A DNA stretch of 64,000 nucleotides from Raillietiella orientalis (lineage: Eukaryota). A model generated the notes under the pieces. The model was not told the origin of the DNA and made no database searches. It was given only the letters and a program-made list of their open reading frames with translations. The position numbers and the translations under genes are program-made. Each line of letters begins with the position of its first letter. Positions within the stretch are counted from its first letter, which is position 1. Below are positions 1,116-31,149 of this stretch, one piece after another. Location: NCBI GenBank assembly GCA_036172245.1, contig JAYWIR010000003.1, positions 3,286,001 to 3,350,000 on the forward strand. Direction: 5' to 3'.

Positions 1116-2835
1116 AAGTTCAGCGAGAAGAATGTTCGAGTTATACACGATTTCGAGGTCCATCCATCACGGAGACCGCTGGTCCTCATGCAGACTGCAG
1201 GGCACGTTTCGGGAAGTGCGTACTACTATCAGAGATGCGACCTAGAAGATGACCCGTGGGACGAAAACGAAGTAATTATGCATTCTTGCTTTTTTTCTTT
1301 TCTTTCTCCTTGTGAGCGCTGCTACGGCTTTCTTTCAAGGTAGGCCTCTCTCGGGCGATCGGTTCGGTGCTTTTGTATGGCAGTTTTTTCTTTTGTGTGT
1401 GTCTTCGAGGGATGTTCCCATTGTCTTTCACGCAGGTGGATCCTCGTCATCAACTCTTCCGGACTCAACCCGCCAAGATTCTCCCAGATTTTGTATCTGT
1501 CCCAAAAGCTTGGCAGGATCTCCCCTGCCGATTGCCTTTATTTTTTTTTTTCTTTCCTCGGCAAGAAACTTAAACTCGACGGATTGCATTCCTAGCTGAC
1601 CCCAAGCATGCCGGACGCCGTTCCACATCGTGGCTCTTCATTCCTCCTCCTCCTCCCTCGTTTCGAGGTGTCCGTGCTCCTTGTTCTGCGCGGTTGCTTC
1701 CTTCTTCCGGTTCTTCCGAGCGCACCACCGGAGGGCAAAAGGTAAAGCGCGTTCAGAAATGGAGAGAGGCCTTTTCGAGCGTTCGTTTTTCACCCGATCA
1801 CGCCGGGGCGTTTGTTCAAAAATAAACCTAAATAATGGGAACTCAGTTCCCAAGGAAACTCACAAGAAGTTCGTGGGGAGGGATCATCTACACGCGGCTC
1901 GGTAACATAGGAGGGCCGGAGCGGGAGGGAAAAGCAAAATAAGTAAATAAACGATAGGGCATGGGAGTGGCAAGGATGTTCGTTGTCGGCCGCTTCTTCC
2001 TCTGCGGAACCGGAGCAGAATGCAAGCTATCCCCGTGATGACCTTTCCTTCCAAGTGGGACCACCTTGCTGCGGTTCTTCGCGTTTATCACGGGGTGACC
2101 TCCCGTCGCTGCGCGCGAAACTCGAACACATGGTGGGCAGTCACGACGGTACGCACGCTGATCACGGCATCCACGAAAGCCCTCCGTGCTGCGCCGCCCC
2201 CGGGGTGACAGCGAGGGACCTCCGCGTGCGAAGAATCGCCGCAGCAAGTCTCTGGCAGTGTCCTCTGGGTGCAGCAGCGCCATTGCCAGCATCGTCGTCC
2301 TGAGGGCTTCTTGCCGCGCAGACACCGCCACGGGGAGCGCGTTTATGTAGCGCGCTATGTTTCTGGGGAGGAGGGGGGAAGGGATGAGGAACAGTATCTG
2401 GGCGGCTTCCGCTTGTCCCGTCGAATTCTGTTCATCTTAGCGGCAACGAATTCCGTTTTAAGGCATTTCGTTTGTAGAGGATTGTGGGAGTCTGCGTTCA
2501 TCCCAAGTACGGAGGTTGGTTCGCGTTCCGGGCGGTGCTCATCTTCCCGTCCGTCTCCTGCTCCGCCTTACCGAGGAAGTTCCCCGCCTGCATCCTGAGC
2601 GTGAGTAGCACGCAGATTTCCGAGGCGCGCCGAACGGAGTCGGTTCCAGAAGGAGGAGATCGTGAGGCTCCTGGAGGAGTTCAATTTCTCCTGGAGGAAG
2701 GGTCGGTACCGAGAGGTGGGAAAAGTGCAGGAGAGATACTCCATCATCCAGCTCTGTTACTTCCTGCTGAAGCCGTCACAGCGGCAGTGGCTGGTTGAGG
2801 CCATCCGGCACGGCAACGAGCCGACGGCGGCTTAG
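1116..2835 (+). CDS. MMACHC: MMACHC/cblC cobalamin-processing protein, 3' part (exons 1116-1271, 2478-2600, 2650-2835); 5' exons not identified in the window
   Basis: Spliced translation KFSEKNVRVIHDFEVHPSRRPLVLMQTAGHVSGSAYYYQRCDLEDDPWDENE|RIVGVCVHPKYGGWFAFRAVLIFPSVSCSALPRKFPACILS|KEEIVRLLEEFNFSWRKGRYREVGKVQERYSIIQLCYFLLKPSQR...* carries the MMACHC motifs (EVHPxRRP, QTAxHVxG, AYYYQR, HPxxGGWF, FNFxWR, ERYS). GT-AG introns 1272-2477 and 2601-2649 are both phase 0. TAG at 2833-2835. Confidence 0.93.
1791..2300 (-). mobile_element. LINE 3' fragment, antisense, inside the MMACHC intron
   Basis: Minus-strand ALLHPEDTARDLLRRFF resembles ALLHRGDTARMFMRRFF of the 5000-8550 copy. Ends in the family terminal hairpin at 1791-1810. 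Confidence 0.7.
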
Positions 2836-7900: not shown

Positions 7901-8550
7901 TCAGGTGATCGTCCGAACCCTTGCAGTTGGCTTTCTAGGGTTCCGGGAACCCCAGAATGAAGAGGCGATATGACTGCAATATCGACATATAATAAATATT
8001 CGATATATGTCGAATGAATATATAAATATCGAATTATAAACATATTTATGTATTTTGTTTATAATCCTTCGAGTATATAATATGTCAATACATATTATCA
8101 ATTATGCCAGTAATATGTATGCTAATAAACATTAAGAATAAAACATGAAATAAATTGTATATTAATCTACGTATGCATTTCTTTTTCGTGATCTTTCGAG
8201 ATCCCGATCGTTAGGGATTTCGAACGCAACCTCGACTGGATCCGCGTGTCGGGACATCCCTCCTACGAAGAAAACGCCGAGAAGGCAGAACACGTGGAGA
8301 GGATGAAGACGGTGACGACGCCGTCCCCATGAACATCGACGCCCGATAAGGACCCGCGTCAATGGACGCGGAAGTAGACGAAGGTTCTCTTCCGGAAGCA
8401 AATTCCTATACTTGCGGCGGGAGCAAGAAGATGGTGAGGAGCTCCCGGAGAGCCCTTTGTTCCCTGCTACCTTTCTGCCCCACTCAGTAGGCAGAGCTGG
8501 CCCGCACATGGTCCTCAAGCTCTTGCAGAAGGGTGTCGGGAGCATTCGGT
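5000..8550 (-). mobile_element. Decayed L1/Tx1-like non-LTR retrotransposon ORF2 (APE endonuclease remnant, RT, C-terminal zinc finger)
   Basis: Motifs in order on the minus strand: PDTLLQE (~8530), SDDH (~7905), RGIRQGDSLNPLLF and YADD (7091-7342 ORF), KYLGVP (~7000), CGAAETLPHLLFDC (~5950). Stops, frameshifts and internal deletions present. Confidence 0.85.
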
Positions 8551-10212
8551 TGGTACCCGGTCACTCCGGGTATCAACCGAATAGCGATCAGTTGCAAGAT
8601 GCGTGATCTTGCCACGTTACAGAATATACAAAAAGAACTTGCCGAACGGCAGCACAGAGGTTCGCCACGGCAGCACAGAGGAAGGGAAAACAAACAAAAA
8701 GAAAAAACAAAACAAAACAGAAAACATACAGTCAAAAAAATGGGGGGCTTTGGGAAGGGATCACTGGGTGCTGAAGGACATCCTCTGCATCCTTGTAAGG
8801 ATGCCGGCAAGTTCCTGTTTCAAGACTCACAGATGGGGTCATCTTGACGCTGTCCTCATGAAGAGGACAGCAAAATACATGGCGTCTCTGCCGTTCTGGT
8901 CTCCCCTGTCCTTGCTCCATGCGGCCACGGTCCGCGTAGGCAGCAAAGTGCTTCTAGGGATGTGGCCGGAGTGAGGGCTTCGCGCGAGAATAGACGCTTG
9001 AAAACGTCTCTGCAATCGTCCTCGGGGATCCACAGGTACGCGGCAAAGCTCTCCCACAGGGAACGTAGGACAAAACAATCCATGAGTAGGTGCGGAGTGA
9101 CTCTTTTGCGGCACCTATTGCAGTTCGGGTTCGCACTCCCCCGGGTCCAATGATGGAAGTGAACCTTGCACGGGAGGTCCCAGTGCAACAGCAGGGTCGC
9201 CGACTCCTGCCACTTTAGAGGGAGGGTAGCACTGTTCCAGCACACTGGGGGCCATTTCACCACCGGAGGAATTTATAGCAGCTCTCCCCAGCGTAGCAGT
9301 CCTTTTGGTGGGAAACTCGGGGTCGCGGCGTCCTCCAGCTCCCGAGTTGTCCACTCACCCAGATGTTTTTTCCTTCTCCCTATCACGCAGGTCACTTCCC
9401 ATCTCGCTGGCAGTTGGCTATCCATTGCTCCCCTTAGGGAGGGCAGCACTGGGGCAAGGGGGGTGAACGAGGCCCACATCAGATTCTTGGTGTTCCCCAG
9501 GATCTTTTCCAACGGCTGACGAGCGCATCTGCTGTCCTGTAGGCAGATTTACTCTTCCTTGCGCGTGCCGTTGATTTTTCCCCATGCGAACATCGACTCC
9601 TGCAGCCAGCCGGTCCAGTTAGCAGGGAGGACGGAGATCCAGGGGTTCTTCTGCACAGAGGCAACCATATATCGGAGCTGCGGGTCAAGATGGTCCAGAC
9701 TCTTCTCGGTGGCCACGAAGACCGAGGTCAGTCCTTCGCATCCGGTTGCCTGTTTGGCGAGAATTCTTGCTGGAGCGCACCAAGGTGTAGTCCAGTGATT
9801 GGATGCGAGGGCCAGTCTGAGGAATCGGAGCTGTCGCTCCATTCGATCCAGCGTAAGCAGGCCGAATCTATCATCCCTGAGAGGAACACAGAGGTCTTCT
9901 AAGCGGACCTTCTAAGCGGTTCTTCTTTTGTCCCATAGGACTTTTCTGAGGAGATCTTCGGTTCTTTTGCGAATCGCTGCAGGGACGAGGCAAACAAAAA
10001 GCAAAGGGCGGAGGAGAGTGGCTGGGAGCGCCTTCCAAACCGCAGCCTGTTCCTGCAAGTTGAGCTTGCCGTACCAGAACGGGCCGAGAGCCATTTCTAC
10101 TTTTTGAAGACTGTCGGACCAGGCTTCTGCTACGCAGAAGTCCCCCAACGGAAACGCCAAGGTACTTAATGTACCCGCCTGTGGGGATCCCCAAGCGGAT
10201 CAAGTCCGTACA
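8551..10212 (-). mobile_element. 5'-truncated LINE (RT C-terminal part to 3' end)
   Basis: IKYLGVS (~10160), LPARWEVTC, LPLKWQE..LLHWDLPC, CNRC..HLLMDC zinc finger, ELAGILTRMQR C-terminus, pyrimidine-rich 3' UTR, terminal hairpin 8554-8572. Confidence 0.9.
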
Positions 10213-10214
10213 TT

Positions 10215-10790
10215 GGTGTGATAGAACCCGTGGTTCTACTACGTGCAGTGAACCTGCCGAAGAGCGGTTTGCAGACCGGCGAGGTATGCTTCAGCAGCGT
10301 GTGGAGAGGGAAAACAAAAAAAATAAACAAACAAAACTGGGGAAGGAAGAGGGACCGAGGAAGGGATCACGGTACGCTACCAGGAGGTCCTCTGCAACCT
10401 GTTCAGGATGCTGGCAAGTTCCCTTCGTATATCGCCCAGGTGGGGTCATCTTGAGGCAGTCCTTAGGAAGATCCACGCCAAGTAGATGGCATCCCTTCCA
10501 TTTTGGCCTTTTCTGGCGTTCCAGGCCGTCATCGTCCCGTGGAGACAGCAGAGAACTGCGAGGGACGCGGCTGGTGGTGGCAGTGAGTCGCGCACGAAGA
10601 GGCGTTTCAAAATGTCCCTGGGTCCGCCCACAGGGTTCCTAGGGTCGCCGCGAAGTGATCCCAAAGGGGTCGGAGTCCAACAGGGTCTCCTTCTCCCTGC
10701 ACCTGTCGCACTCCGCATGAACACTCCCCCGGGTCCAACGGTGAAGGCGCCATTTGCATGGGATTCCCCAATTCAAGACCAGCAACGCGG
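10215..10790 (-). mobile_element. LINE 3' fragment
   Basis: RDILKRLFVRDSLPPPAASLAVLCCLHGTMTAWN..DAIYLAWIFLRTASR, followed by the family 3' UTR hairpins. Confidence 0.85.
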
Positions 10791-10869
10791 AAACAAAGCA
10801 GAAATTGTCATTCCGACTGGTTGCTTTCTATGAAATGAACGCCCCCGGGCGTGACCGGGAGAAAAACTT

Positions 10870-12330
10870 CTCGTGGCAAGTGGGATCACCTCTCTGTAGT
10901 CCCCGCGAAGGCGGCTACTGGACGTGTGACTTCCCTTCGTTGCGAGCATAGCTCTAGGTCGAGGCGGGTCTCCAGGATGGCGCGCACGCACCACCCCCAG
11001 CGTTGCGATCTCCGCGCCGCACGAACGCCTGTCGCGTGCACGAAGAGGCGCCTTAGCCAAGTTTTGTCCGCCAACCGTTTTGTCTCTCACCCTGTCCTCC
11101 TCGGGATGCAGCCGCAGCGCTGAAGCCGTCCGCCGCAGTTCTTGGAGGTCGCCGCGGTCCAGCAACAGCTGCGAGAGCGATTCAATCATCCTGCGCCTGG
11201 AGCAGTTTGGGGATGCGGTTCCCCTGGAAACGATGTAACGGAAGTCCCATTGCAGAGAGAACACCACCTGGAGCTTCCATTTAACCCTTTGGGTGTGGGG
11301 CTCATCGAATTGAAACGTACCGTACTGACGGCACGCGGGTCGCAGCTGCGAACTCTGTGGACGGAATGCTTTTTCGCGTACCACCTGCTCTGTAGAGGTA
11401 TCGATAAATTGCTGATTAAAGTTACTATTGTAATTGTTTGTTTACACTACATTAAATGTAATACTTTCAGTTTTTCCAAACATTTCTCGTCTATATTTGG
11501 CTATTCTATTATCTGTGATGCCTTTCATATCTTCGGAGTCAGATAACTATGAAAGCCACAGGGATATTTTCTCAATTTCATCGTCACATTCTTCATTCGA
11601 ATCCGACTCTTCACCCATGTCGCCGTCGTCTCTTGCAATAATCTCTCCAAAATTATTTGACATTTTAAAGATATCACAAAGATAAAAATAACAATATAAT
11701 AAATTACATACGACACCGAGAAAAAACGAGAATCGTTAGTTTGATATAAATAGAATTTTGTTTACTTTCGTTGCCAAGGGAATCATAAGAACACGTAAGT
11801 GCATGCGTCCATCTCAAACATGGATAGTGTTAACTTATGCCGCGTGTGCAAGGTAAAAAACATTTGCCAAACACACATATGCGTCCATAGTCCACGCCAA
11901 TAGTTCTCGTCGAACACATAGATGCGTCCATGACACGCAAAGGGTTAAGGGGCCGCAGCAGCGACGCGTCCATACGCTGGGGAGAGGGACGGACCACGCA
12001 CGGGGGAGTTCTTCCCATCGAAGCGGTCCCTTGGGCTGAAGCCGTGGGGTGGTGGCGACCACCGGTTCTCTCGCCGTCCTTCAGCCTGCTTGGAGTTCGG
12101 TCGCTCCCACGGTGGGGCGTGAGAACCCCACTCCCGCCGTCGCTTCCCCTGAGGGCAGAAGGCAATGCAGAGAGCTGTGTGACAGTCACTCTGGACCACT
12201 TCCTGGAGTCCTGCGTCAGTACTTTCGAGGAGATGCTGCGTGCAGATTCTTCAGTGCGAGTAGTTCTTCCGGAAACACTTGGGAGGCGGATAACCGGGTT
12301 TCCATGGTTCCCTACCGCCAAGCGTTGAAG
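10870..12330 (-). mobile_element. LINE ORF2 C-terminal fragment interrupted by a piggyBac-type insertion
   Basis: KGPLRWEEL..LLRP on one side and LKWKLQVVFSLQWDF..PNCSR..ESLSQLLLD on the other rejoin as the family PLKW motif once 11285-11948 is removed. Confidence 0.8.
11285..11944 (-). mobile_element. Non-autonomous piggyBac-superfamily DNA transposon (660 bp)
   Basis: TTAA at 11281-11284 and 11945-11948. Terminal inverted repeats CCCTTTGGGTGT / ACACGCAAAGGG (11 of 12 match). Subterminal ATGCGTCCAT three times (11803, 11879, 11922). AT-rich interior with a short acidic minus-strand ORF from 11663 (MSNNFGEIIARDDGDMGEESDSNEECDDEIE) resembling a transposase N-terminus. Confidence 0.88.
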
Positions 12331-12339
12331 CTCCAGGAA

Positions 12340-13005
12340 AGCGTGGATTCGGCGATGTTACTCCAGCATCGGGGCAGTTCATCTCAGAAATATTCATGCC
12401 CCCTCCCTCCCCGTCTTCCGGGGGATAGTGCGGTAGCATGGAAGCGAGTCCTTCACTGCCTGCGCAACGCCGCAGGAGGAGGCGTGAGGGCGCCCACAAC
12501 GGGTCCGAACTTGGATCCCCCAGACCGACGCGGTCTGCAACCCTCGCCTCCGCAAGGAGACTTCGGAATGGAAAGCGGCATAGCTTGGCTCTAAGGGCGA
12601 GGATCCAGAGCTGCACTTGCAGTTCCTCTTCGTCCAACTCCAAGGTAGCAGAAGGCTGCTGCCTGCATAGGATCGTAGCGGTCTGAAGCACGACGACAGT
12701 GGCGTCATCCATTTCGTGGACCTCTTCTTGAGGAGAGCGTCAAGGTGTCCCGAGGAACTTGCCGGCATCCTGGAAAGGATGTTGAGGACTCCCTCCTCCA
12801 GCAGGCCGTGATCCCTTCCCGAACCCTCCCAGTTTTTTTGTATGTATATTTTTTTATTTTTTATTTTATTTTTGTTTGCCCTTCCCCCTCTACCGAGGCG
12901 AACCTCACCGGGCTGCGTACCGGTCCTCGGCAAGTTCTCACTGTTGCATTTGCGGCATCTATATTTATTTTATGTCAATAAACACCTTACAGTGATTCCA
13001 GGTAT
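12340..13005 (+). mobile_element. LINE 3' fragment
   Basis: GAACTTGCCGGCATCCTGGAAAGGATG C-terminal motif, T-rich UTR, hairpins and AATAAA at ~12977. Confidence 0.8.
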
Positions 13006-13519
13006 AAAACTTGAAGGTGCGCCGAACGCCGCGCCACCGAGTCCTCGAGGCGTGCCCCGGACCTCGCTGGTTCCTTCAAGGCTTTTTGCACGGCGGGCGT
13101 TTCGCCCAGAGCTTCATCACCTGATGGCAGGGTGGAGGGGCGAAAAGCGAGGAAGGGGGAAAGGGGGGCACAAAGGCTTCGACGCCCGTTCCATCAAATG
13201 GAACTTGCCGTCGAGGGGCGGGCCGAGAGTGACTTCGGTCTTCTGAAAGCATCTGGACCACGGGTGCATCTACTCTCAAAGAGGAAGCGGACTGCACTTC
13301 CGTACCCTTGGCGGAAGAGCGTGAGCCCGCACAGCAATGCAGTCCAGAGGCTGCTGAATCGGTTTCTGACCCGGTCACGCCGGGGGGTTCACTTCAAATA
13401 GGTGAACAACTCGGGAAAAAAAAAGACGACCACGGGAGGGTTTACCACCGCACGGATTTTCCCTCAAAAACGCTAGGGACAACGACCTCCCAGCAAGGTG
13501 GGAAGTGTCCTGACGTATC

Positions 13520-14357
13520 TAAGTCAGGAAAAAACTTTCAAGGGCGTGGTCAACTAGGCAGAAAGCGGGTGCTGCGACCCCGATCGTTTTGCCAAAATGT
13601 ATTCCACGCTGGAGCGAGATGCTCGCGATACCTCTGGAGGAAGTGAAGTGGCCCCCAGGGTGTTGGGACAGTAGCACCCTCCCTCTGAAGTGGCAAGAGG
13701 TGGTGTCGCTAGTGTTGCATCGGGGAGTCCTATGCAAAGCGCTCCTCCATCACTGGACACGGGGTAGCGTGGATGCGTAGTGGGACGGTGCGGAGAGAAG
13801 ATCACATTTATTAATAGACTTCGTCGGCCTCCGAGTCCTTTGGGATCAACTTTCGTCGATCCTTAAAATCCCGGTAGGCGAGCCTAAGAACATTTTCCGG
13901 AGTCTCTTCATGCGTGACGCCCTGCTCCTGGCCGCGTCTCTAGTAGTGCTCTGCTGTGTACGCGGAATCGTGGCAAGCTGCAACTCCAGAAGAAGGGGCC
14001 ACAAACAGCAAGGGTGTCACCCATTGGACGGGAATCTTCTTGAAGACTGCTTCCCGATTGTCCCAACTGCAACCAAAGAATGCAGAACTTGCCAGCATCA
14101 TGGACAGGATGCAGAAGACGTCTCCAGGAAAGCAGTGATCCTTCTCCGCCTCCCTTTTTCCGAAAAACTCCTACACCCCATTTTTTTTTTGTGGTTTTCC
14201 CTTCCCCTTCCCCTCTAAAGCGGACCTCACCGGTCTGCGTACCGGTTTTTGGCAAGCCCATCGCGCGTGGTAGAACCAAGCGTTCTATCACGAATTTGTA
14301 ATGTTTACGAGTTTTATTATAATTTTTTTAACAAATTCCCCGGCAAATCCGGGTGAT
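13520..14357 (+). mobile_element. LINE 3' fragment with complete 3' end
   Basis: RWSEML..LPLKWQEVVSLVLHRGVLC, IFLKTASR..ELASIMDRMQK, all 3' hairpins, terminal CCCGGCAAATCCGGGTG. Confidence 0.88.
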
Positions 14358-14403
14358 GAACCACCCCACGGGTCGGCTGCTGAAGAAGTCCGGAGCGGGA
14401 GGA

Positions 14404-14423
14404 TTAGGTTAGGTTAGGTTGGG
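14404..14423 (+). repeat. Short (TTAGG)3-TTGGG run matching the arthropod telomeric motif
   Basis: ttaggttaggttaggttggg seen directly, between two convergent LINE 3' regions. Confidence 0.5.
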
Positions 14424-16150: not shown

Positions 16151-16437
16151 AGAAATTAACAGGATAGGGGGGAAGCCGGATAGGGTGGAGAGTGATGCAG
16201 GGGGAGAAGTTCCTCCGAGCACATTCCCTGGAACGAGGCCCAGGAACTCGACAGTCCCCTGCCGCTAGGCGCTGGAGTTCCTCGGGTTCCAGGAGACCCA
16301 CTAGAGGGGAGAGCTGTCTCGAAAGAGGGAAGCTGAATCCCCAGCATCCCTGCGCCGGGCACTCGGCAGCAATGGGAGCAGCCCTGAGCAGACGCACAGA
16401 GTAGGGAAGTCCATGCGGAGCGCCTGCATTGCCACGA

Positions 16438-17120
16438 GTTTTTCACCCGGTCCCGCCTCGGCGTTTATTTTATGAAAAATAAACCACTCGGTAACACGCT
16501 GCTTCCCAACTGAAGACAGCAAGAAACAAAGGGGAGGGTCCACCGGCACGCAGGCCGGGACAGCAGTGAGTCCGGAACGTTTTCAACTAGCAATAATCGC
16601 GACTCAGTCACCTCCCTCGCCTACGATATTGCCCGTGCACAACAGAGAATCCGGAACGGGGGAGGCACAAGAGGAATCCCCAGCGGATGAAGAGCAGCAC
16701 GGCCTGCTTCCAGGCGAAGGGGAACAGCGAACCGTTCACATAATTGGGAGGGACCACAAGTTCTTCGGCGACCAACACTCAAGAGTTCGCCCTACCGAAG
16801 TAGTCCCGTCGCCACACCACGAGGAGTGGCAGCACCCACCAGCTCGCTCGTCTTCCAGCCGCCGAGGAGTCTGTTTTTTTCCCGCGATGGCGCAGCAAAA
16901 TCTCCCACCTTACCGTTTGGCTACTGTCGGCTCCTTCCCTGGAGGCAGACAGCGCTGCCGCGAGGGGTGTGGCGGTCATTGTCGAAGACTTCACCGCGTC
17001 CTGCATCACCACTTCCGGTGGCCGTGGTAACGGATGTCGCAGGGGGTCAAGAAGAAAGCATCCCGGATTCAGACATCTTCTTATGGAAGCAGCGACAGTA
17101 AACCAGACGACGGTTTTCAT
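16438..17120 (-). mobile_element. LINE 3' fragment (internally deleted)
   Basis: TPLAAALSASREGADS..RWEI is homologous to SLAAALSALRARDDS..GWEI. The 3' tail has the CTGCGT-loop hairpin, AATAAA and a terminal motif at 16444-16463. Confidence 0.7.
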
Positions 17121-18429
17121 AGGGACGGTGAATCTGACGAGGGTCTTTACTGTGACAATGATCTGGAAGAGGGACTGGAGTCCCTCGACGACGTACCCAT
17201 GTCTCCGCTTCGACTACTTCCTTAGGACTCGAACCCCGGACGCTTGGTGCCACGAACGGACGCCGTAAGCACTTGGCCTTCGACGCGGGCTTGGTCACGG
17301 GAAGCCTCTAGGGGGCGCGCGCGCATCTCGAGAAGGCTATGCGGAGGAAGGGACGGGGCCTGTCCCAGAGACCCCACCCACCCCTATCTTTTCGTTTATT
17401 TATTGGAAGTCCTCTCCCTTTCGTTCCGGACTCGCCTCCTGTCCGATTTGCGTCCTGTCTGGGAGGACCACCTTCCCACTGGCTTCTTCTGCTCGTTTCT
17501 CTTGACAACGCGGTCCCCGAGTTCCCGTGTGTTTGCCTTTCAAGGAGAAAGCGCCCATCTCGGCCGCGTGAAGACAAAGAAGTGCATCCAGGACGCCAGC
17601 AGCCAACGGATCCGAGGTCGCCGCCGCGAAATTGGCGGTTCAGAGACGCCCCGGGCATCTGGTCTGGCGTGACCCGAGTCCGATCTTGTGGTGTAGACTC
17701 GGAGATCGACCTTGACCGGCGACCTCGGGAGAATCTCGATGTTGAGATTGCGTTTCTCAACGGTCACTTTCGAGGGGGACCAACCGCCCTCCAGTTGCTG
17801 GAGTGAAACGGCGGAGGCTCAGTGGACAGCAGGCGCTCCTCTCGGACAGCACAAGGAGGCAGCGCACTTCGGGGAGTTTTTCCGAGTGACTTCGAGGGGT
17901 CACCTACCGGTTCGCAGGGGGAAAGAGAGTCTCCAGTAGAGTGATGCTCTCGGAACGGACGCTCATTTTCGCCTTTTTTCCCCTCTAGGGACGGGAACGG
18001 GTCTGCGTCGGAGGGAAGGGCAGGGGTCCGAGCTTCCCGACCCGAAGGGAGAACAGCGTTGCCGAAGAGTTGGGACGGCTGGCAGCTGGGTGTCCTTGAA
18101 AGGAGCCCTTCGAGCCCGTAGTGACGCAGGTCCGGTAAGGAGGCGCCTGCACGAGGAACGGGTCACGGATGAAGGTGCCTCAAGATCCGCTTCGAGGGAG
18201 CCGCCCGGGCAACAGGCGCTGGCGGGGTGGGTCAAGTCACCACGTGGCTCTCCTTCGAGTCGCCGTGGGCCGCGCCCTTGGGATGCAAGCGATCTCGGGG
18301 GTCGACAAGCGGGAGAGTCGCTCTCTCCGCACAGCTCGTCAAGATTGGGGGTGCCCCGGGAAGGGATCGCCCTACGAACCCAGGAAGGGTTCCGGAAGAA
18401 AGGAGTCCGTTCCTGTCACGCCTGGGGGG

Positions 18430-19250
18430 ATTTGCCACCCGGTCACACCGGGGTCTTTATTAGAATTCTCTATAAAAATCGTGGTACTAGGCCCCACTAC
18501 GGTCACCACAACGCTGGACCTGCTGGGTCGCCGGTACGCAGACCAACGCGACTCTCCTCGTCAGCGGAAGGGAATGGGGGAAAAAAACAGAAAGAAAAAT
18601 AAAACAGAAAAAAAGGAGATTTTGGAGGGTCGGGAAGGGATCATCACCCACTGGGAGGAGGGTCCATCCTTTTTAGGATGCCCTCGAGGTCCGTCCGAAT
18701 TCTTCCAAATTGGAGTTGGCGGGCTGCATACCATTCAGCCGTTCTCCTTGGCCAGTGTCGCCATGCGCCCGAGGAGAAGGCCACATCTTCTGGTCTTTCG
18801 GCCTGGGCACAAAAGATGAGACGCGAGTCCTTGCGTCCTGGATACACGCCTGGCGAGGAGGCGGGGAAAACGCACCAGGGAGTGCTCCAATACTTCGCTG
18901 CGATGGCCATGGTGCGCCATCGCAGCTAAATTTCCAAGCGCTCCAGCGTCAGGAGGTCGAGACCGCCGTCCCGATGCGGAGAGCAAAAGTCCTTCAGAGG
19001 GACTCGGGGCCTCCCGTTGCTCCACAGGGCGATACGTAGGAGGTCCTCCGTCTGTTTCTTCAAGAAAGAGAGGAGTCCTTCGTCCGTTTCTTTCGTTTCC
19101 TGGGGGAGGGGGAACTCCGGAGGAAAGAGGTCCTCTCTATTCTCTCCGGAAGGGTTCCCAGGAGGGGCTTGCTCCCGGTTTCTTCCTCCGAAGAAGGGCG
19201 CTCCCCGAAGGGAGTAGCGAATTTATTTCCACTCTGGAGAGGCAGCATCA
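18430..19250 (-). mobile_element. LINE fragment with 3' end
   Basis: KYWSTPWCVFPA resembles NHWTTPWCAPA of the 8551 copy. DLEGILKRM C-terminus. Terminal hairpin 18436-18454 after AATAAA. Confidence 0.75.
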
Positions 19251-19259
19251 ATCCACCAG

Positions 19260-20552
19260 CTCTATGGCACGAGACATAGGGTCCCCCCAGGAAGAGGAGG
19301 GGACGTCTCCATTTGCATAGCAGAAGGGGAGTTTCGGAAGGGAGCGGTCTCCTTGGTTCCTGGAATGACCCGGATGGTCGACTCCCAATCCCGGCCACTC
19401 ATCGGGAGCATCCGGGGTTTCTGAATTCCACCATTTTTTTTTTTCTTTGGTTCGTTCAGCACCTCGAGAGATGTCGCGCGCCTCGCGGCTCACGCAGCTC
19501 TTCAGCGCTGTTCCACGCCACTCGAGGGTGCGCTGAAAACTCCGTTAGGAGGAAAGGACTAGGCGAGTGGACGACGGACCAGCTCACCGACACTGCCACC
19601 CCGAGTGCTCGATCTCGGGGACTTTTGCGCTTGGGTGTGCTACTGGATATTACGGAGGAAGACCCGTAGTGGGCCTCGGCGCTCATGAACAACCGCACCC
19701 TCCCCTTGAAGTGGCAGGGGTCGGCGCTGCTGCTGCTGCTGCACTGGGGTCTCCCGTGCAACGTCCGCTGGCATCACTAGACACAGGGAAAGGGAGTGGC
19801 CCCGAATTGTGCCAGATGCGGGGAGCGAGAATCTCTCCCGCACCTGCTAGTGGACTGTGCTGTCCTCCGGTACCTTTGGGGACGCTTTGCCGCGATCCTT
19901 GGAACCCCCGGAGGCAGCCCCAGAGTCGTTTGGAAGCGCCTCTTCCTGCGCAACACCCTCACGACGGCCGCATCCCCAGCATCACTTCGCTGCCCACGCG
20001 GCGAGACCGTGGCAGCTGCATGGAGCAATGCCAGAGGAGGCCAGAACGACAGGGACGCCATCTATTTTGCTGTCCTCTTAACGAGGAAACCGTCAAGACG
20101 GCCCCATCTGGGAACCTTGAACAGGATGAATTGTCGGCATCCTTACAAGGATGCAGGACTGGAGGACGTCCTCCAGCACACAGTGATCCCTGCCCGAACC
20201 CCTCTTTCCTTTTTTTGATTGTACGTTTTTTTTTTTCTTTTTATTTGTCTCCCCTTCCCTTGTGTAGCCGAGGCGAACCCCACTGGCCTGCATGCCAGTT
20301 CCCGAGAGGTTCCTTTTAGTAGTCATAACTGCTAGAGAGATACCTCATAACTGGGGCGAGCTACTGGATGTTCCTCTGGAACATCTGAAGTGGACTCCGG
20401 TGACTCATGGACACCCACACCCTTCCCTTGAAGCGGACCTCGCCGGTCTGCTTACCTCTCTTCGGCAGGTTCATTGAGCGTGGTAGAACCAACAGTTCTA
20501 CCATAAAAATGTATTTTTATTAGTAAAATGTCCCGGAAGAACCGGATGAGAA
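19260..20552 (+). mobile_element. LINE 3' fragment followed by a second, internally deleted 3' fragment (20335-20552)
   Basis: LGEWTTDQLTDTATP, PNCARCGERESLPHLLVDC zinc finger, DAIYFAVLL. The 3' UTR motif occurs twice (~20270 and ~20430). Terminal hairpin 20531-20548. Confidence 0.9.
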
Positions 20553-20559
20553 TCATCCT

Positions 20560-21345
20560 AGTTTCATCCATCCCGGCAAGGTGGGAAGTGACTCGCTGCA
20601 TAGCAACAAAGAAGGAAGCATTGGGAGCGTGGGCAATTCGGGAAGTGATGGACGCTGCTACCCCGAGTGTCCCGTCAAAAGAACTTTCACGCTGGGGCGA
20701 GCTGTCCGCAATCTTCTTCCGCACGTCCGGAGCGGCCCCAGAGTGCTGGAACTCTCAAATGGTGGGAGTTGGCTTTGCTGGTGTTGCATGGGGGAATCCC
20801 GTGCAAAGCGTGCCGCTGGACACGGGGCAGTGTGGGTGCGGAGTGGGACAGGTGCGGCGAGAAGGAGACCTTCACCCACCTGTTGCGAGATTGTACTCTG
20901 TACCACCCTTTGGGATCGTCGACGGACGACCCTAGGAATTTCGATGGACAGCCCCAGGGACACTTTCATACGCCTCTTCGTGGGTGGTGCCGCGCTGCCG
21001 CCAGTCGCGTCCCTCGCAGTCCTCTGCTGTTTCCACGGGATCGTGGAGGCCTGGAACATGGGAAGAAGAGGCCGTAATGGCGCAGGGACGCTACCCACTG
21101 GGCATAGATCTTCCTGAGGACCGCCACGAGATGGATCCACCTGGGAGACATACGAAAGGAACTTGCGAGCATCCTGGACAGGATGCAGAGGATGCCTCGC
21201 AGAAAGCAGTGATCCCTTCCTCGACTGCTGCCCCCCTTCCCTTTACCGGCCTCTGTTTTTTGCTTTTATTTCTCCCTTCCCCTTGGCTGCCAGAGCGGAC
21301 CTCGGCGGTCTGCGCACCGGTACTTGACGGGCTTAGCGCATAGAA
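20560..21345 (+). mobile_element. LINE 3' fragment
   Basis: IPARWEVTRC..LGAW..DAATP..RWGEL, DRCGEKETFTHLLRDC, family C-terminus and UTR. Confidence 0.88.
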
Positions 21346-21479
21346 TTGATCATCGTCATGGCCTGCCACGTGTTGGAGGCGCGAGCGGCCCAAACAGAGG
21401 TCACCAGGACTGCAGCCTCTAACATGAGGATGGCTGCCAGTTGGCCTCACATGAGCGAAGAAGGCAGGAAGGAGATCTC

Positions 21480-21785
21480 CGGCATTCAGCGCTGGTTCTG
21501 AGAAGAAGGAACGGCCGAAGCCAAAGACCCCTGTCCCCTATCCCCCCATATCTTTTTGTATTTGTTTATTGTACCCTCCCTCCCGTTCCGGACTTTCAGT
21601 ATGCCCGACCTGCGTGTCGGGTAGCCTTCCCCCTGAACTTCTGTTCCCTCTGCCTGGGAGCTTTGTTCCCAGATGGTTTGTATTTTAAATAAACGTCCCG
21701 GCGCAACCGGGTAAGAAATCGCAGCATTGAATATTTTTAATTGCACTCCCATTATTAACAAATGCCCCTGCAAACCGGGTGGAAC
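21480..21785 (+). mobile_element. Two abutting LINE 3' tails
   Basis: CCCGAC-CTGCGT-GTCGGG hairpin, AATAAA 21688, terminal hairpins at 21697-21711 and ~21764-21780. Confidence 0.65.
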
Positions 21786-23001: not shown

Positions 23002-23439
23002 TGCAGCCCTGGGAAGCGAGGAGCTGCCTGATTTGTTGCGTGGCGCGAGCGAGGCGTGCGGCCGCGTCGCTCCACGGAGGATGCGCGGCGGCCCAGAGGG
23101 TGGGGCGCGCACATGCGCAAAACGGGCACATGCATAGCTAAGGAGGTGTAGGTTTCCTCCCCCCCCCCCCCGGCCTGGCCCAGCAGGTTCGGCTCCGAGT
23201 TGGTCAGCTCCTTGAATTCCCCGGAGAAAACATCCCTGCATTTCACTCGTGAGATCGCTCGCACCGGCGCTGCGGACGATTTGCGCCTGTTGCTCCTCAG
23301 ATCTCCCGGCTTCGGGAGCAGGGGGCACCTGCCGGCATCCTGTCCAAGGATCCCGTAGGATAGGGAAGCTCGTGCTGGTCTTTCTCGAGAGCACATGTTT
23401 AGGGGAGAACTTTCTTCGCGCCTTGAGGGATCGACCTGG

Positions 23440-24400
23440 GAAACACCCGGATGCATCGGGGTGTTTATTTTGAAAATAAACATATACATGCGTAGGGCCA
23501 TCGGCCCTACGACGTCCGGAAGAGTTCAGAATTTGCCGAGTAATCGGCACGCAGGCCGCCGAGGTTCGCCTCGGCAGTGGAGGGGCACAAACAAAAAGAA
23601 AAACGAAAACACTATTTACAAAAAAAATGGGGAGGGTTAGGGAAGGGATCACCAGGAGCTAAAGGGCGTCCTCTGCATACTTTCCAGGATGCAGGCAATT
23701 TCCACCCGAGTGTGCCCTAGGTAGGATCATCTGGCTGCCGTCCTCAGGAAGCGTAGGGCGAAGCAGATGTACGTCCCTGTCCATCTCTGGCGTAGCTCCA
23801 GACCGCCACGATCCCGTGTAGGCAGCAGCAAAGAGCTGCTAGGGCTGCCGCGGGCGAGAGGGCATCCCGCACGAAGAGGTGCTTCGTCACGTCCCTGGGA
23901 TTGTCCGTCGGTGAACCAAGGGCCGTTGTGTAACGCAACCACAGGGACTGGAGGGCAACACAGTCTACAAGCAGGTGCAAGAAGAGCTGGGATTCCCGCA
24001 CCCCGTACCTGCAACAGTTGGGGTCCACAGCCCTGTGGGTTCAGTGAGACCGGCGGACGCTGCACGGGAAACCCCAGTGCAACAGCAGAAGTGCCGACTC
24101 GTGCCACTTCAGGGGAAGAGCCCTGTTCTTCTTCAGTGCTGAGGGCCATTGGGGAATCGACGGTGGGAAGGTTTCTCTGGGGAGCTCTATTGCTCCCTCC
24201 GAAATTCATGCTTTCTCCCTCGCCAAGGTGGCTGCTGGAAGAACAGCCAAACAATCAGATGGTGTTTTGGGAGAGTAGGACTTTGGATATGGATCCTGAG
24301 AGGGACACTCTTCGTGAGTGAATGCTCTGTCCTTTGGAATAGACTAGAGGGGAAGAAGGAGTACCTGTCCTTTTGGAAAAGATGAGGAAAGAAAAAGCTT
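23440..24400 (-). mobile_element. LINE 3' fragment with complete 3' end
   Basis: PNCCRYGVRESQLFLHLLVDCVALQSLW..HLFVRDAL..LCCCLHGIVAVW. Terminal hairpin 23444-23463. Confidence 0.88.
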
Positions 24401-26375: not shown

Positions 26376-27879
26376 ACCTGCCAACGGGAGGGACGAAAGA
26401 CTGCACTGACGAAGCTCCTGCGGCTGCGACGAAGCGCCGCCTCGGGTGCGGCCACATCCTCCGCTGAGTTCCCACGCCGCCGTGCCCGTGCCCACAGGGT
26501 CCGGCGCTAGTCCTCGACCGCCGCTCGGCTTTCATCTTGGCATCGCCGTGGAGAGACGCTCCCGCCAACCTAGCGGCGCCCTCGCCCTCGACCCCTTGTC
26601 TACCTTCCGCGGGTCGTGTACTGGACCCTCTCCTTCCGCGCTCCAGAGGGCGTGGGCGACGGCGACAAGTGCATTTTCCGGAGGAACCTCGCCTGGCTCC
26701 CCTTCCCGCCTTCCAGGAGCGCGGGGTGGCAGCAGCGGGAGGCAGTGGAGGGACTGCGATGCAGACGGGAACGGTTCGTTCGGGAGAAGCGGTCCAAAGG
26801 GACTAGGGCGCAGGGGTCCCTTCGGGCTCACATCGCTGCTGCCGGATGCGAGTTGTGGGAGAGGGGAGCAGAGGAGAGGGGGGAGCGAGGGGAAGAAAAC
26901 GGATCACTCTGGTCCTCGCGTCTCCCTCTTCCTCCTCCTCCTCCCTTCTTTATCGTCCTCTTCCTCTCCCACCGTTCCTCCCTCCCCTCGCTTCCTCCTG
27001 GAGAAGGCTCCGATCGTCGCAGTCTGTTGAACAAAGGGGGTGGTGAGATGTTCCAAGGACACGCACCCGGGACGCATCTCGGATCGTTGGCCAGGAGGAG
27101 CAGCGCTCACTGAGCTTCCCGCGGGAAGGCGGGATCGCAGAGGATCTTCCCCGAGCCCGTCGTCACGCGCCTCCCCTTCTCGTGTCTTCTGCGAGGTAGG
27201 GTGCGTCCTGCTGGGGTGGGTCCGCGCAGATGCGCTCGCCGGGTCCCTCCGTGTTCGAAGCTGACCCGCTCTCCTAGCGGAGGGGCAGCTGCTTGACCGC
27301 CCGCGGTGGAGTCGCCGTCCCTTCTCCGTCGCGAGTCCCCTCCGAAGTTCGAAGGAACCGCCCAGGCGTCTTCCAGGTGGTCTGCGGCACGGCAATTCGT
27401 CCGAGCTGCCTCTTCCCGAAAGGTTCCCTTGGAAGGTTCCCTCCCGCGGGCTGTTCCCGTCCTGCACGCTCCCCCTTTTTTGCCCTCTACGGACGGGGTA
27501 ACGCCAGAGCGAGAGGTGGAGAGACGGGGGTTCCCCGGCTCGCCGGCGAGGAACAGGGCCCGGGAGCAGGACCCGGAGAGGCGATCCGCCCGGGCAGCGC
27601 GCCTCCTTGAGGCCTTCCGCCAACCGGGTCCACCGAGCGTCCGATGCCAGTTCGATCGGGCAGTCGCCTAGGCAACGCCGGAAAGAACGCGTGTACGTGG
27701 GAGGAAAAAAAGGGTGGAAAGAAGGGACCTTTTTCCTTCCCGGGGCCGCTCTAACCCTCACGACTCCGCCGGGACTCCGAGAGCAGCCTCAGGGTAAAAC
27801 AAAAAGATCACTCTGCGTGTTCGGCGGAGGCATCCCGCTCAGCCTATGGAACCGGCACCTCTCCCGTCAGAAACGACGA

Positions 27880-28489: not shown

Positions 28490-29990
28490 CTCAACGAATT
28501 TGTGTTTCCTGAAAGTGGAGGAAGGGATCTGAGACATCACCGCTTTCTCGCACGCCCTTTTGCCACTTGTGGATCTGATGGGGAGATCCACCCTTCCACG
28601 TCCGGCATATCTGGGACACGGGGGAAGGGGGTGGACTTAAACTGCCCCAGGTGAGGGGAACGTGAATCCCAGCTGCAGCTGCTTGTGGATTGTGTTGCCC
28701 TCTGTCCCCTTTGGGAACGCTTTGCCGCGACCGGAGACAACTCCAAGGACGCTTTACGGCTTCTCCTCCTATGCGACGCACTTCGGCCGGCAGCCTCGCT
28801 AGCAGCTCTCCACCGCCTACGAGGGATCGTCGCTGCCTGGAGCGACGCAAGAGGACACAGCGACAGGGGTGCCACATCCACTTCGCCGTCCGCTTCATGA
28901 GGACCGCAACAAGATGGTCCCACCTGGACAATAACATCCAGCAAGACCTTGCCGGCATCCTCCAAAGGATGCAGAGGACCGCGCCTAGCAGACAGTGGTT
29001 CCTTCCCACTCCTCCTTCCGAATTTGTTTTATTTGTATTTTGTTTCTTTTTCTTTTTGATCGTAAGAGCTGGGTGTAGAGGCGAAAGACGAATGGAACCA
29101 TCTGGTAGCTGCTGGTTTCCACCGAAGTTTCCCTCAGGATAGCTGGCGCTCGCCGAAGTAGGAAAAGAACGGAGTTCATCCGGTAGAGCAAATGAATAGA
29201 GGCCTTGGATCCGAAATGACCTCAACATATTCTCAAACTTTAAATGGGTAAGAAGTTAGGTTTGCTTGAAAGCTGGACCGCTTACCCATTGGGAGACGGA
29301 CTTGCGCTCTCTCCCCCCGACTTCAGCTCGGACTGTCAGATCCATGAGCTCTCGGTGGGCCAATTTTGATAAGCAGAACTGGAGCTGTGGGATGAACCAA
29401 ACGTTGGGTTACGGCGCCTGATGCGACGCTTATCAGATCCCATGAAAGGTGTTGGGTGCTATGGGCAGCGGGACGGTGGCCATGGAAGTCGAAATCCGCT
29501 AAGGAGTGTGTAACGACTCACCTGCCGAAGCAACCGGCCCTGAAGATGGATGGCACTCAAGCGTCGAGTCTGCTCCCAACCGCCGGGACAGAGCCGTTCC
29601 TGCCTTCCGGAAGTCGCCTCGGGCTCCGGCGAGTCGGAGGGTCGCGACGGGGCTCGCAGAAGGGTTTGGGCACGAGCTCTCCTGGAGTCACCTCGGCGCA
29701 GATCTTGGTGGTAATAGCAAATACTCCAGTGAGATCCTGAAGGTCTGATTTGGAAAAGGGTTCCATGGGAACAGTCTTTGAGCATGTCCAGAACAGCCAT
29801 CGGTCCTCAGTCCCCGGTTTGTGTTCCCCTCTGCTGCCACGGTGGACCTCACCGGTCTGTGAACCGGTAACGCAGCAGATGAGAACGGAAAAGGAAGTGC
29901 TTGGACCAGTGGTCCAACCACAAAGATGGTAAATTGTCTTATTGTTTATTTAATTTATGAATAAACGCCCCGGATCACCCGGGTGACAAC
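28490..29990 (+). mobile_element. LINE 3' fragment whose 3' UTR is split by a 28S rRNA fragment
   Basis: LNCPR*GERESQLQLLVDCVALCPLWERF zinc finger and DLAGILQRMQR C-terminus. The T-rich UTR runs to 29057 and resumes at ~29817 (GGACCTCACCGGTCTG). AATAAA 29960, terminal hairpin ~29966-29985. Confidence 0.88.
29058..29810 (+). pseudogene. 28S rRNA: Degenerate 28S (LSU) rRNA fragment, ~750 nt, ending at the start of the D7 region
   Basis: Eukaryotic LSU core strings in order: GGCGAAAGAC..GAACCATCT, CCGAAGTTTCCCTCAGGATAGCTGG, TATTCTCAAACTTTAAATGGGTAAG, AAGCAGAACTGG, GGACGGTGGCCATGGAAGTCG.AATCCGCTAAGGAGTGTGTAAC.ACTCACCTGCCGAA, GATCTTGGTGGTA.TAGCAAATA, AAGGGTTCCATG, TCGGTCCT. It has substitutions in near-invariant positions and no flanking rDNA, so it is non-functional. 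Confidence 0.95.
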
Positions 29991-31149
29991 GCATGCCCCA
30001 ACGTGGAAGATTTCCTTCTCCTTCTCATCTTCCCTTTGTTGTTTTCTAGGCGGGGTTTTTACGTTTCCTCACTTTCGGTTCGAACCACAATGAGACATGG
30101 CCACATTCAGCTGCCTACCCAATGGAAGCGGACGCTGAAGACAATGCAGCTACCTCAGTGCAGAAAGCCTGCCGTGTTCGTCGTCCTCTTGAAAATGATC
30201 CATCGCGGATATTCGAGGAATTTGGCAGACTGGCGCTTAATCGAAGCGATTGAAACTCATCTGTAACCATAAACATCTCTCGTGCACAGTGAAGACTGCT
30301 GATAAAAGGAAAATGATGGATGGTGTGCGTAGATGCATATTCCCCGCAAATCAATTAGGACGAGAGGTATTTATAGGTTGGTTAGAGAGCTTCTTTTGTC
30401 GGTCGTCCACGTTCGTTCGCTTTGCAATTGTCTGCGCCTTCTTGTGATAAGAAAGAGACCCCCAATAGCCCTGTCGCAGGCTTTCTTTGGGATGACTAGG
30501 AAGATGACAGGCATGTTCATTCAGGAGTCGACACCACTGGGGGCAGAAAAGACTTGGCAGATTGAATGGGAGAGGTAGCTGAAGTGCATTCCTGTTGCTG
30601 CCGTTCTCATTGCAAGAATTTGCGTAAACTAAAGGCGAATTTTGTCGAGAGGGAGAAACGTTTCTCCCACCTTAAAGTCTTCTCTTTTTCTTTTAGAGGA
30701 ATCCTCGCTTGAAGTCGACCCTCGTGGACCAGATCCGGTTGTGCGCCAAGTCCGGTTACCACGGTCACAACTCGGAGTGCCGTAAGCACCAATTCACAGA
30801 GAGCAAGAAATCGAAGATATAATTGGGGGAAAGTTAGGGACGTTTCAGATAACCTTGCTGGAGCTCCTTTGCTTTCGTTTGCCGTGTGATTTCCTGGCAG
30901 TTTGTTTGTTTGTTTTTTCCATAGCTTTCTAAACGACAAGACTGAATGTCCCCCTCCTTTTTTTTTTGTCTTTTCTTCTTCTCTTTCCAGTGCGTGGGAG
31001 GAATATGTTCGCGCCGAAGAGCCTGAAAAAGTACAGATAGAACAAGTAGCTCATTTGCATCGCATTTGATGCGCTGATCCCTCCATAACTGTCTCAATTG
31101 TAGGCCATAAACAGCAGGACGGGCGAGGCCGATCACGCGCTCATTTTGA

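Follow-up and report, generated by a model that had tools for sequence, protein, structure and literature searches.

The stretch of DNA analysed here, which we call the window, is 64 kb (64,000 nucleotides, nt) of a Raillietiella orientalis contig, JAYWIR010000003.1, and consists of eukaryotic DNA with 57% G+C and no N. From about 1.8 to 30 kb the window is densely occupied by decayed copies of one family of non-LTR (long terminal repeat) retrotransposon, a long interspersed element (LINE), and the 3' end of this LINE is the subject of this analysis. We found 15 copies or tail fragments, labelled A to O, of which 11 carry the end of the second open reading frame (ORF2) together with a 3' module of about 260 nt and four (J, M, N, and O) are tail only. 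Copies A, B, C, D, E, F, G, H, and I form a first subfamily; K and L are the copies of a second subfamily that have an ORF2 end, and the tail-only M, N, and O belong to the second subfamily as well. All copies are truncated at the 5' end and all reading frames are broken. Pairwise identity between copies is 64-75% over at most about 700 nt, the exception in length being copy C, which extends to the reverse transcriptase (RT).

The module is arranged as follows. It starts in the last ORF2 codons with the 5' arm of a long-range stem (stem a; GAACTTGCCG, codons ELAG), which is directly followed by hairpin b, about 25 nt of reading frame, and the ORF2 stop codon TGA, which sits in a strongly conserved block, GTGATCCCTTCCC (0.92; this and all other conservation figures are majority fractions). 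After the TGA comes a tract of variable length that is first pyrimidine-rich and then T-rich, then hairpin c, 3-4 nt, the 3' arm of stem a (CGGCAAGTTC), hairpin d, within 7-25 nt of that arm, an AT-rich stretch whose last letters are AATAAA or a variant with one base changed, hairpin e, and finally TGAnAAAC. Below, a5 and a3 denote the two arms of stem a. In copies A and B the features are these:

Copy A, module 12750-13010, plus strand
12755-12764 (+), stem a 5' arm, GAACTTGCCG, in the last ORF2 codons, paired with 12928-12937 by RNAalifold and in the minimum free energy (MFE) fold
12765-12782 (+), hairpin b, GCATCCT-GGAA-AGGATGT, coding for GILERM
12809-12811 (+), ORF2 stop TGA, within GTGATCCCTTCCC
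12812-12897 (+), pyrimidine-rich and T-rich tract of variable length
12907-12924 (+), hairpin c, ACCGGG-CTGCGT-ACCGGT
12928-12937 (+), stem a 3' arm, CGGCAAGTTC
12942-12957 (+), hairpin d in a weak form, TGTTGC-ATTT-GCGGCA, with two G-U pairs, z -1.02
12977-13009 (+), AATAAA, decayed e, and an A-rich end
Copy B, module 14080-14370, plus strand
14085-14112 (+), stem a 5' arm, GAACTTGCCA, and hairpin b, GCATCAT-GGAC-AGGATGC
14137-14139 (+), ORF2 stop TGA
14229-14246 (+), hairpin c, ACCGGT-CTGCGT-ACCGGT
14250-14259 (+), stem a 3' arm, TGGCAAGCCC, pairing over 7 bp and carrying at its inner end a double change from G-C to A-U
14266-14292 (+), hairpin d, 11-12 bp, CGTGGTAGAAC-CAAGC-GTTCTATCACG, z -2.90
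14330-14361 (+), AACAAA (a variant of AATAAA), hairpin e (CCCGG-CAAAT-CCGGG, 14339-14353), and the terminal TGATGAAC, without poly(A)

A preliminary description of this DNA, made from the sequence alone, had proposed a multi-hairpin RNA module seen in many copies and in fixed order, and each coordinate it gave holds the sequence it reported. The order c, a3, d, AATAAA, e, terminus is common to the 15 copies and fragments, and c, d, and e persist in both subfamilies; stem a and hairpin b are missing from K and L. The 27-nt motif made up of a5 and b occurs six times at up to three mismatches compared with none in 100 shuffles, and the c motif occurs four times against 0.02 expected. A profile hidden Markov model and BLAST run over the window recovered eight whole 3' modules plus fragments.

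Hairpins c and d are real hairpins, with pairing maintained by compensatory change. In an unguided MAFFT alignment of 10 copies, 75.1% of the cells in c and d are paired, compared with 61.0 +/- 2.3 in shuffles (0/500) and with 27-44% when the pairing partner is slid by 1-3 columns. Both sides have changed in 13 of the 18 pairs (8.4 +/- 1.8 in shuffles, 7/500), there are 30 double-changed cells (11.8 +/- 3.0 in shuffles, 0/500), and further pair types number 28 as opposed to 21.6 (3/500). The preliminary description had suggested that the sequence of d turns over while its pairing is kept, and this is what d shows when taken alone in 29-nt cuts, which MAFFT aligns without gaps and in the same register: 11 of its 12 pairs have double changes, amounting to 25 cells against 10.4. 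For example, TAGAAC/GTTCTA in copy B and CAAGAT/ATCTTG in copy C differ by four compensated transitions, and d is GTAGGGCC/GGCCCTAC in D and TTGGACC/GGTCCAA in F, all of these different hairpins lying between the same flanks (ACGTG ... CAC). A hairpin score of at least 7 is reached by 9 of 13 d windows compared with 5.9% of 4672 background windows of 50 nt, and relative to dinucleotide shuffles the d windows have a mean z of -1.6 over 12, ranging from +0.96 (E) to -4.49 (J).

Hairpin c has 6 bp and the loop CTGCGT, and changes on both sides affect 4 of its 6 pairs. Among 11 copies, six close the loop with U-A and three (D, G, and L) with C-G, the outer pair is A-U, or G-C (I), or C-G (L), and the fifth pair goes from G-C to A-U in the second subfamily. 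Conservation is 0.87 in the loop, which the two subfamilies share, compared with 0.78-0.80 in the arms, in keeping with the conserved CTGCGT-type loop on a varying stem that was described earlier. Copy C has lost hairpin c by deletion. A pseudoknot between the loop of c and a flank of d was judged by eye and rejected; no partner change accompanies the loop variants of H, G, and F.

It had been cautioned that some of the paired changes could be due to CpG deamination. The five elements have 43 double-changed cells in all. Both sides are CpG-type in six of these, namely in three of the five that belong to stem a, in two of those in c, and in one in e. The caution is thus justified for stem a and not for c and d, which are mostly non-CpG and survive the covariation check when CpG sites are considered, with 24 of the 25 double changes in d having no CpG-type side. 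CpG reaches 0.94 of its expected frequency over the window as a whole, and 0.78 within the LINE copies. A search of public sequencing runs listed one DNA run of small share and no RNA run. The DNA run gave 329 short contigs, of which 5 are at least 99% alike and 257 less than 90% alike on the LINE parts. Some contigs are identical to parts of the window, so the run comes from the same organism, and the diverged ones show that this organism has many other copies of the family; these contigs are unlinked sequence and unusable for covariation. Within them C>T/G>A (79/82) and T>C/A>G (72/64) are nearly balanced, which together with the CpG ratio of 0.94 indicates that deamination bias is mild in this genome.

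The other elements change less. Stem a is a perfect 10-bp helix in copy A and in copy C (8635-8644/8805-8814), has seven contiguous pairs in B (CTTGCCA/TGGCAAG, 14088-14094/14250-14256), and is interrupted by an A-A mismatch in D; in H, 9 of the 10 pairs form, with one G-U. The matched G-C to A-U change in B recurs in E and is CpG-type on both sides. Its 3' arm is an isolated conserved 10-mer (0.79 compared with 0.53 in the spacer and 0.44 in the downstream flank) that is exactly complementary to a5 and lies 3 nt from c, and a5 is flush with b. Hairpin b is GCATCCT-N4-AGGATGC over the codons GILxRMQ; in the first subfamily its arms are conserved at 0.95-0.98, compared with 0.61 in the loop and 0.51-0.70 in neighbouring codons. 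Hairpin e, CCCGG-N5-CCGGG, is an addition to the preliminary description, though within the range that it covered (14339-14353); it is present in 11 copies, with its arms paired in 92.7% of the cells of those copies around nine different loop sequences.

RNAalifold, run on a sequence-only alignment of eight copies, predicts a, b, and c unguided. In single-sequence MFE folds a forms in A, B, C, and H, b in A, C, G, H, I, and F, d in ten copies, and e in most of the copies that have it; whole-module z is -1.56 in A and -3.80 in C. The MFE folds of K and L contain GAAG/CTTC-type pairings that are candidate equivalents of stem a, in two copies only. Over 13 rows, a, b, and c together have 82.6% of cells paired as opposed to 77.2 in shuffles (0/500), and 14 double-changed cells as opposed to 5.4.

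The module has a defined end. In 10 of 11 copies, e is preceded at a distance of 3-4 nt by AATAAA or by a variant differing at one base. About 9 nt past e, after TGAnAAAC, homology between the copies is lost, and in 11 copies no A-run follows the conserved end. Every 5'-truncated copy retains the tail, down to about 60 nt in J, M, and N, as is expected of target-primed reverse transcription from a defined 3' end. These three fragments are indistinguishable from 5'-truncated LINEs, as against partner short interspersed elements (SINEs). Separately, we observed a (TTAGG)3 run, the arthropod-type telomere unit, at 14404-14418, 46 nt downstream of the end of copy B and the sole such run in the window.

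We searched a profile of the decayed C-terminal pieces against 1.84 billion representative proteins and obtained three matches, one of which, P0003 (87 amino acids, aa, ending in ELAGILERMQRTASSGL), is a true relative. The other two, P0001 and P0002 (2080 and 1732 aa, matched in 8-10 stretches), are spurious gene calls, neither with a Pfam domain; the P0002 sequence is a translated tandem repeat with a unit of about 60 aa. An RT fragment from the window finds P0004, a protein of 619 aa with RVT_1 at E 4.7e-24. By tblastn, residues 383-592 of P0004 fall at 10190-9555 (-), directly upstream of the module of copy C, P0004 is also found upstream of copy I, and P0003 falls on nine copies, so both proteins belong to this LINE family. 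P0004 is 46-66% identical to the window copies. Its best solved relative is human LINE-1 ORF2p (E 7e-40), with R2 proteins at E 7e-17 or weaker, and its database relatives are at most 30% identical in the RT region and mostly combine Exo_endo_phos (PF03372), RVT_1, and zf-RVT (PF13966). The apurinic/apyrimidinic endonuclease (APE) domain is carried by most of the listed relatives of P0004, and no window copy reaches the endonuclease region. A C-x2-C-x7-H-x4-C pattern is readable in copies C, G, and D; Pfam zf-RVT scores an E of only 0.22, and Pfam found no relevant domain in 12 long open frames of the window. The earlier assignment to the 3' end of an L1/Tx1-like LINE agrees with these results and is a reasonable one.

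Another copy of the family lies at 7381-5354 (-). It includes the RT core, which has YADD at 7189 and is 66% identical to P0004, and a CCHC region at 6073-5354; downstream of this copy we recognised no 3' module. A piece related to this copy is found at 16693-16978.

On balance we lean towards reading the ~260-nt 3' end of this uncharacterised L1-like LINE (of the APE/RT/CCHC type) as a stringent-type RT-recognition tail. Under this reading the ORF2 protein would recognise the folded tail and then start target-primed reverse transcription at the defined end. Hairpin c, with its conserved CUGCGU loop and freely changing stem, would be the likeliest sequence-specific contact, and we liken it to the bipartite rule of zebrafish L2 elements because a conserved loop sits on a varying stem. 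Hairpin d would be required only as a shape or spacer. Hairpin e, 3-4 nt past AAUAAA and about 9 nt from the terminus, may mark or protect the 3' end and position the RT. More speculatively, by stacking on b, stem a would bring the end of ORF2 with its stop codon close to c, and the junction closed by a and b would leave the long pyrimidine loop free to vary in length. A function of the tail in RT binding, termination, or processing is our inference.

Several observations weigh against this reading or parts of it. Stem a pairs badly in E, F, and G, forms in I only with its register shifted by one base, and does not occur in K and L. Of its five double-changed cells, three are fully CpG-type and one (L) is in a doubtful alignment, and a perfect long-range stem of at least 10 bp is present in 1.6% of 871 background windows of 260 nt, a rate at which chance is possible for stem a in one lineage. 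In copy F about 750 nt of 28S separate the two arms of a, so either a is dispensable or copy F was altered after insertion. Hairpin b has one doubtful double change and lies in coding sequence. A recount on 11 sound rows found no double changes in e; the covariation of e in the first count was due to the misaligned rows A, G, and H, the sequence in row H having belonged to the RT coding region of copy C. Hairpin c overlaps with a competing pairing, c' (GCGGACC/GGTCTGC), which is paired in 85.7% of cells; it has 0 double changes, no better than shuffles, and we keep it only as a possible competitor of c. Mismatch cells are G-U in 35 cases and A-C in 28, with no excess, so that the RNA sense strand is not singled out and the folding strand is taken from the biology. 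The shuffle figures above come from a control that ignores relatedness, applied to 10-13 related rows that are all dead, decayed copies. Finally, short tandem 3' repeats are usual in stringent LINEs and none follows e; some green-algal L1 families are likewise without a 3' repeat, going by table 1 of PMC3472496.

The covariation counts also bear on whether all five elements are RNA structures. It is possible, though we think it somewhat unlikely, that only c and d are, and that a, b, and e are conserved as primary sequence, with self-complementarity coincidental or irrelevant: a5 and b would be under protein constraint on ELAGILxRMQ, and a3 and e would be protein-binding or signal sequences. 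Non-CpG covariation comes down to one cell in a and a doubtful one in b, with e having none, a long-range stem just as good turns up at the background rate given above, and a and b are lost in K and L while c, d, and e persist. Against this, the b arms are far more conserved than the adjoining codons and the loop, and a3 is a conserved 10-mer that stands alone, matches a5 exactly in complement, and is placed very close to c. The MFE folds that form a and b in several copies, and the matched change in stem a of B and E in a genome where CpG decay is weak, also speak for structure. Of the long-range stem bracketing the stop codon that was proposed at the outset, the coordinates, the perfect 10 bp, and the RNAalifold prediction hold, and the covariation amounts to few cells, mostly CpG-type; we regard stem a as plausible but weak. 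The hairpin in the last ORF2 codons fares similarly, with near-invariant arms, no convincing covariation, and no counterpart in K and L.

We consider it unlikely that the tail elements serve 3'-end formation or RNA stability and not RT recognition. AAUAAA would then direct cleavage about 25-30 nt downstream, just past e, and e and d would be a processing signal, a terminator, or an exonuclease block, giving an RNA with little or no poly(A). The regular placement of AATAAA or its variant before e, a homology end at what is a normal cleavage distance, the invariant GC clamp that e represents, and genomic copies without poly(A) would all fit. However, the conserved loop and varying stem of c, and a hairpin d that keeps only its shape, are left unexplained, and polyadenylated RNA would normally give A-tailed copies unless the RT starts internally, which itself requires tail recognition. 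A 3'-end role and RT recognition are in any case compatible with each other.

A further idea, which we find doubtful, is that a and b together act as a switch coupled to translation, which would give cis-preference a structural basis in a LINE without poly(A). The last ribosomes at the ORF2 stop would melt a and b, the helix would re-form after translation ends, and a three-way junction (a/b/c) beside the stop would hand the new ORF2 protein its own RNA tail. An insert-tolerant pyrimidine loop would explain the 28S and U4 pieces found there (see below), and the loop would, if the switch exists, be a cradle for new SINE-like chimeras.

That the hairpins act as DNA or complementary DNA (cDNA) and not as RNA, for instance in first-strand cDNA, in second-strand priming, or as an insertion target next to older copies, is highly improbable: equal G-U and A-C counts would let either strand fold and copies do abut head-to-tail (G/J and E/L), but neutral decay equalises the two counts and gives the strand test low power, c alone has 6 G-U to 1 A-C and b has 4 to 0, and the LINE tail signals documented in PMC4176376 and PMC3472496 all act as RNA.

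The remaining copies and fragments of the family in the window are as follows:

Copy C, 8540-10206 (-), module 8819-8540: RT C-terminal part to the 3' end; stem a perfect, hairpin c deleted; d is GCAAGAT/ATCTTGC; e lengthened by a 9-bp outer stem; module z -3.80
Copy D, 23430-24150 (-), module 23707-23430: d is CGTAGGGCC/GGCCCTACG (23491-23511), z -3.27; closing pair of c is C-G
Copy E, 20573-21422 (+), module 21154-21425: stem a decayed, hairpin d absent (z +0.96), e decayed
Copy F, 28600-30000 (+), module 28940-30000: ORF end, a5 and b (28945-28971), 28S piece, c, a3, d (29901-29917), e (29969-29983)
Copy G, 19670-20420 (+), module 20121-20425: c is ACTGGC/GCCAGT (20282-20299), d is TAGTAG/CTGCTA
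Copy H, 10207-10830 (-), module 10427-10207: a, b, c, and d present, the AATAAA and e part missing; the tail ends 25 nt past d, at the 5' end of copy C
Copy I, 18420-19063 (-), module 18692-18420: stem a only in a register slipped by one base (GGACCT/AGGTCC); outer pair of c is G-C; e intact
Copy J, 20421-20565 (+): tail only, with c, a3, d (z -4.49), and e; its start is no more than about 15 nt from the 3' end of G
Copy K, 1775-2080 (-), module 2080-1775: ORF end, c (loop CCGCGT), d (TGGGAAC/GTTCCCA, 1836-1852), and e; stem a and hairpin b absent
Copy L, 21423-21730 (+), module the same: c is CCCGAC/GTCGGG with loop CTGCGT (21604-21621), d is CTGGGAGC/GTTCCCAG; AATAAA; e
Copy M, 13350-13470 (-): tail fragment with hairpin e
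Copy N, 10810-10875 (+): tail fragment with hairpin e
Copy O, 16430-16700 (-): 3' untranslated region (UTR) with c (CCGGC-CTGCGT-GCCGG), decayed e, and the U4 small nuclear RNA (snRNA) 5' half upstream of c

Several of these copies abut. J starts within about 15 nt of the end of G (20420/20421) and L within about 10 nt of the decayed end of E (about 21420/21423), both head-to-tail, and at about 10207 the RT region of copy C begins 25 nt past hairpin d of H, in place of the AATAAA and e of H. Insertion beside older tails or RT jumping between templates are possible explanations. For further copies outside the window, a pattern scan of metagenome DNA gave 0, and P0003-guided scans of metagenome and genome contigs gave 0 confirmed loci among 598 and 600 pattern matches.

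The Infernal comparison with Rfam that had been recommended was made at gathering thresholds over the 64 kb and at E up to 1 over 1-31000. No Rfam family, ribozymes and R2 included, matches the module copies, apart from 28S in F and the 5' half of U4 in O. The first of these is a sense piece of 28S ribosomal RNA of about 750 nt at 29057-29810 (+), in the T-rich tract of copy F between b and the stop on one side and c on the other; LSU_rRNA_eukarya scores 345 bits for 29116-29698 and the flanking sequence on both sides is also 28S. There is no clear target-site duplication around the 28S piece in copy F, which may be a template-switch chimera or a later insertion. The second, at 16575-16646 (-) in copy O, is a U4 snRNA 5' half in the same orientation just upstream of c; it scores 42.4 bits in Rfam (gathering score 46), with only model positions 1-72 aligning well, and has GTTCCGGA on both flanks. 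Its appearance suggests either a double template switch or an snRNA retrocopy that was truncated. We also noted, at 26850-26965, a hairpin of about 100 nt with weak matches on both strands (E 0.05-1, far below gathering) to about ten microRNA precursor families; a long inverted repeat is the probable explanation.

Stringent LINEs as a rule carry structured tails, eel UnaL2 being one example from the L2 clade, and L1-like elements are usually viewed as poly(A)-dependent. According to PMC4176376, on zebrafish L2, stringent LINE ORF2 proteins bind a 3' stem-loop whose stem is recognised generally and whose loop is recognised specifically. The L2-clade tails described there (ZfL2-1 and ZfL2-2) are like hairpin c in having a shape-read stem and a sequence-read loop, and like the window family in having no poly(A). 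However, L2-clade tails consist of one hairpin plus short tandem repeats in an element of another clade, whereas the tail of the window family spreads five elements over some 260 nt, lacks terminal repeats, and has one helix that reaches back into ORF2.

The closest parallels by clade are the maize LINE1-1_ZM group and Chlamydomonas L1-1_CR, which likewise have an L1-like RT and a conserved hairpin 3' end, and PMC3472496 reports such L1-clade stringent hairpins, with compensatory changes and conserved loop bases, for maize and a green alga. Those tails, compared here by their description only, are about 45-50 nt long with a single hairpin, and partner SINEs are known for them. The R2 3' UTR is a multi-helix structure a few hundred nt long, keeps its shape over its sequence, and gives a precise RT start without poly(A). 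It contains a folded domain that is bound by the R2 protein (PMC11194090). Unlike the window family, R2 uses an endonuclease of the restriction-like type and targets 28S rDNA, and the RT of the window family is closer to L1 ORF2p than to R2, as the E values and the lack of an R2 match in Rfam given above indicate. Human L1, a relaxed-type element, has a poly(A) end, which the window family lacks, and the abstract consulted for human L1 describes no covariation-backed multi-hairpin module or long-range stem.

The preliminary description had called the module a possibly undescribed cis-element. This applies to the present family and not to the principle, given that structured stringent L1-clade tails with compensatory changes appear in PMC3472496. 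What is new is the family, the number and arrangement of the elements, and a terminal GC hairpin past AAUAAA without repeats or poly(A); the helix across the stop codon is possibly new as well.

To our knowledge, the way in which LINE proteins choose their own RNA is known in detail only for L2-clade fish LINEs, R2, and SART1. A deep-branching L1-like family with a covariation-backed tail and without poly(A) adds one case for stringent recognition being ancestral in the clade. The last ~170 nt offer a compact RNA for binding and structural studies, and the tail provides a handle on SINEs and chimeric retrocopies mobilised by this element. Should the long-range helix spanning the stop codon prove real, it would open cis-preference to direct testing.

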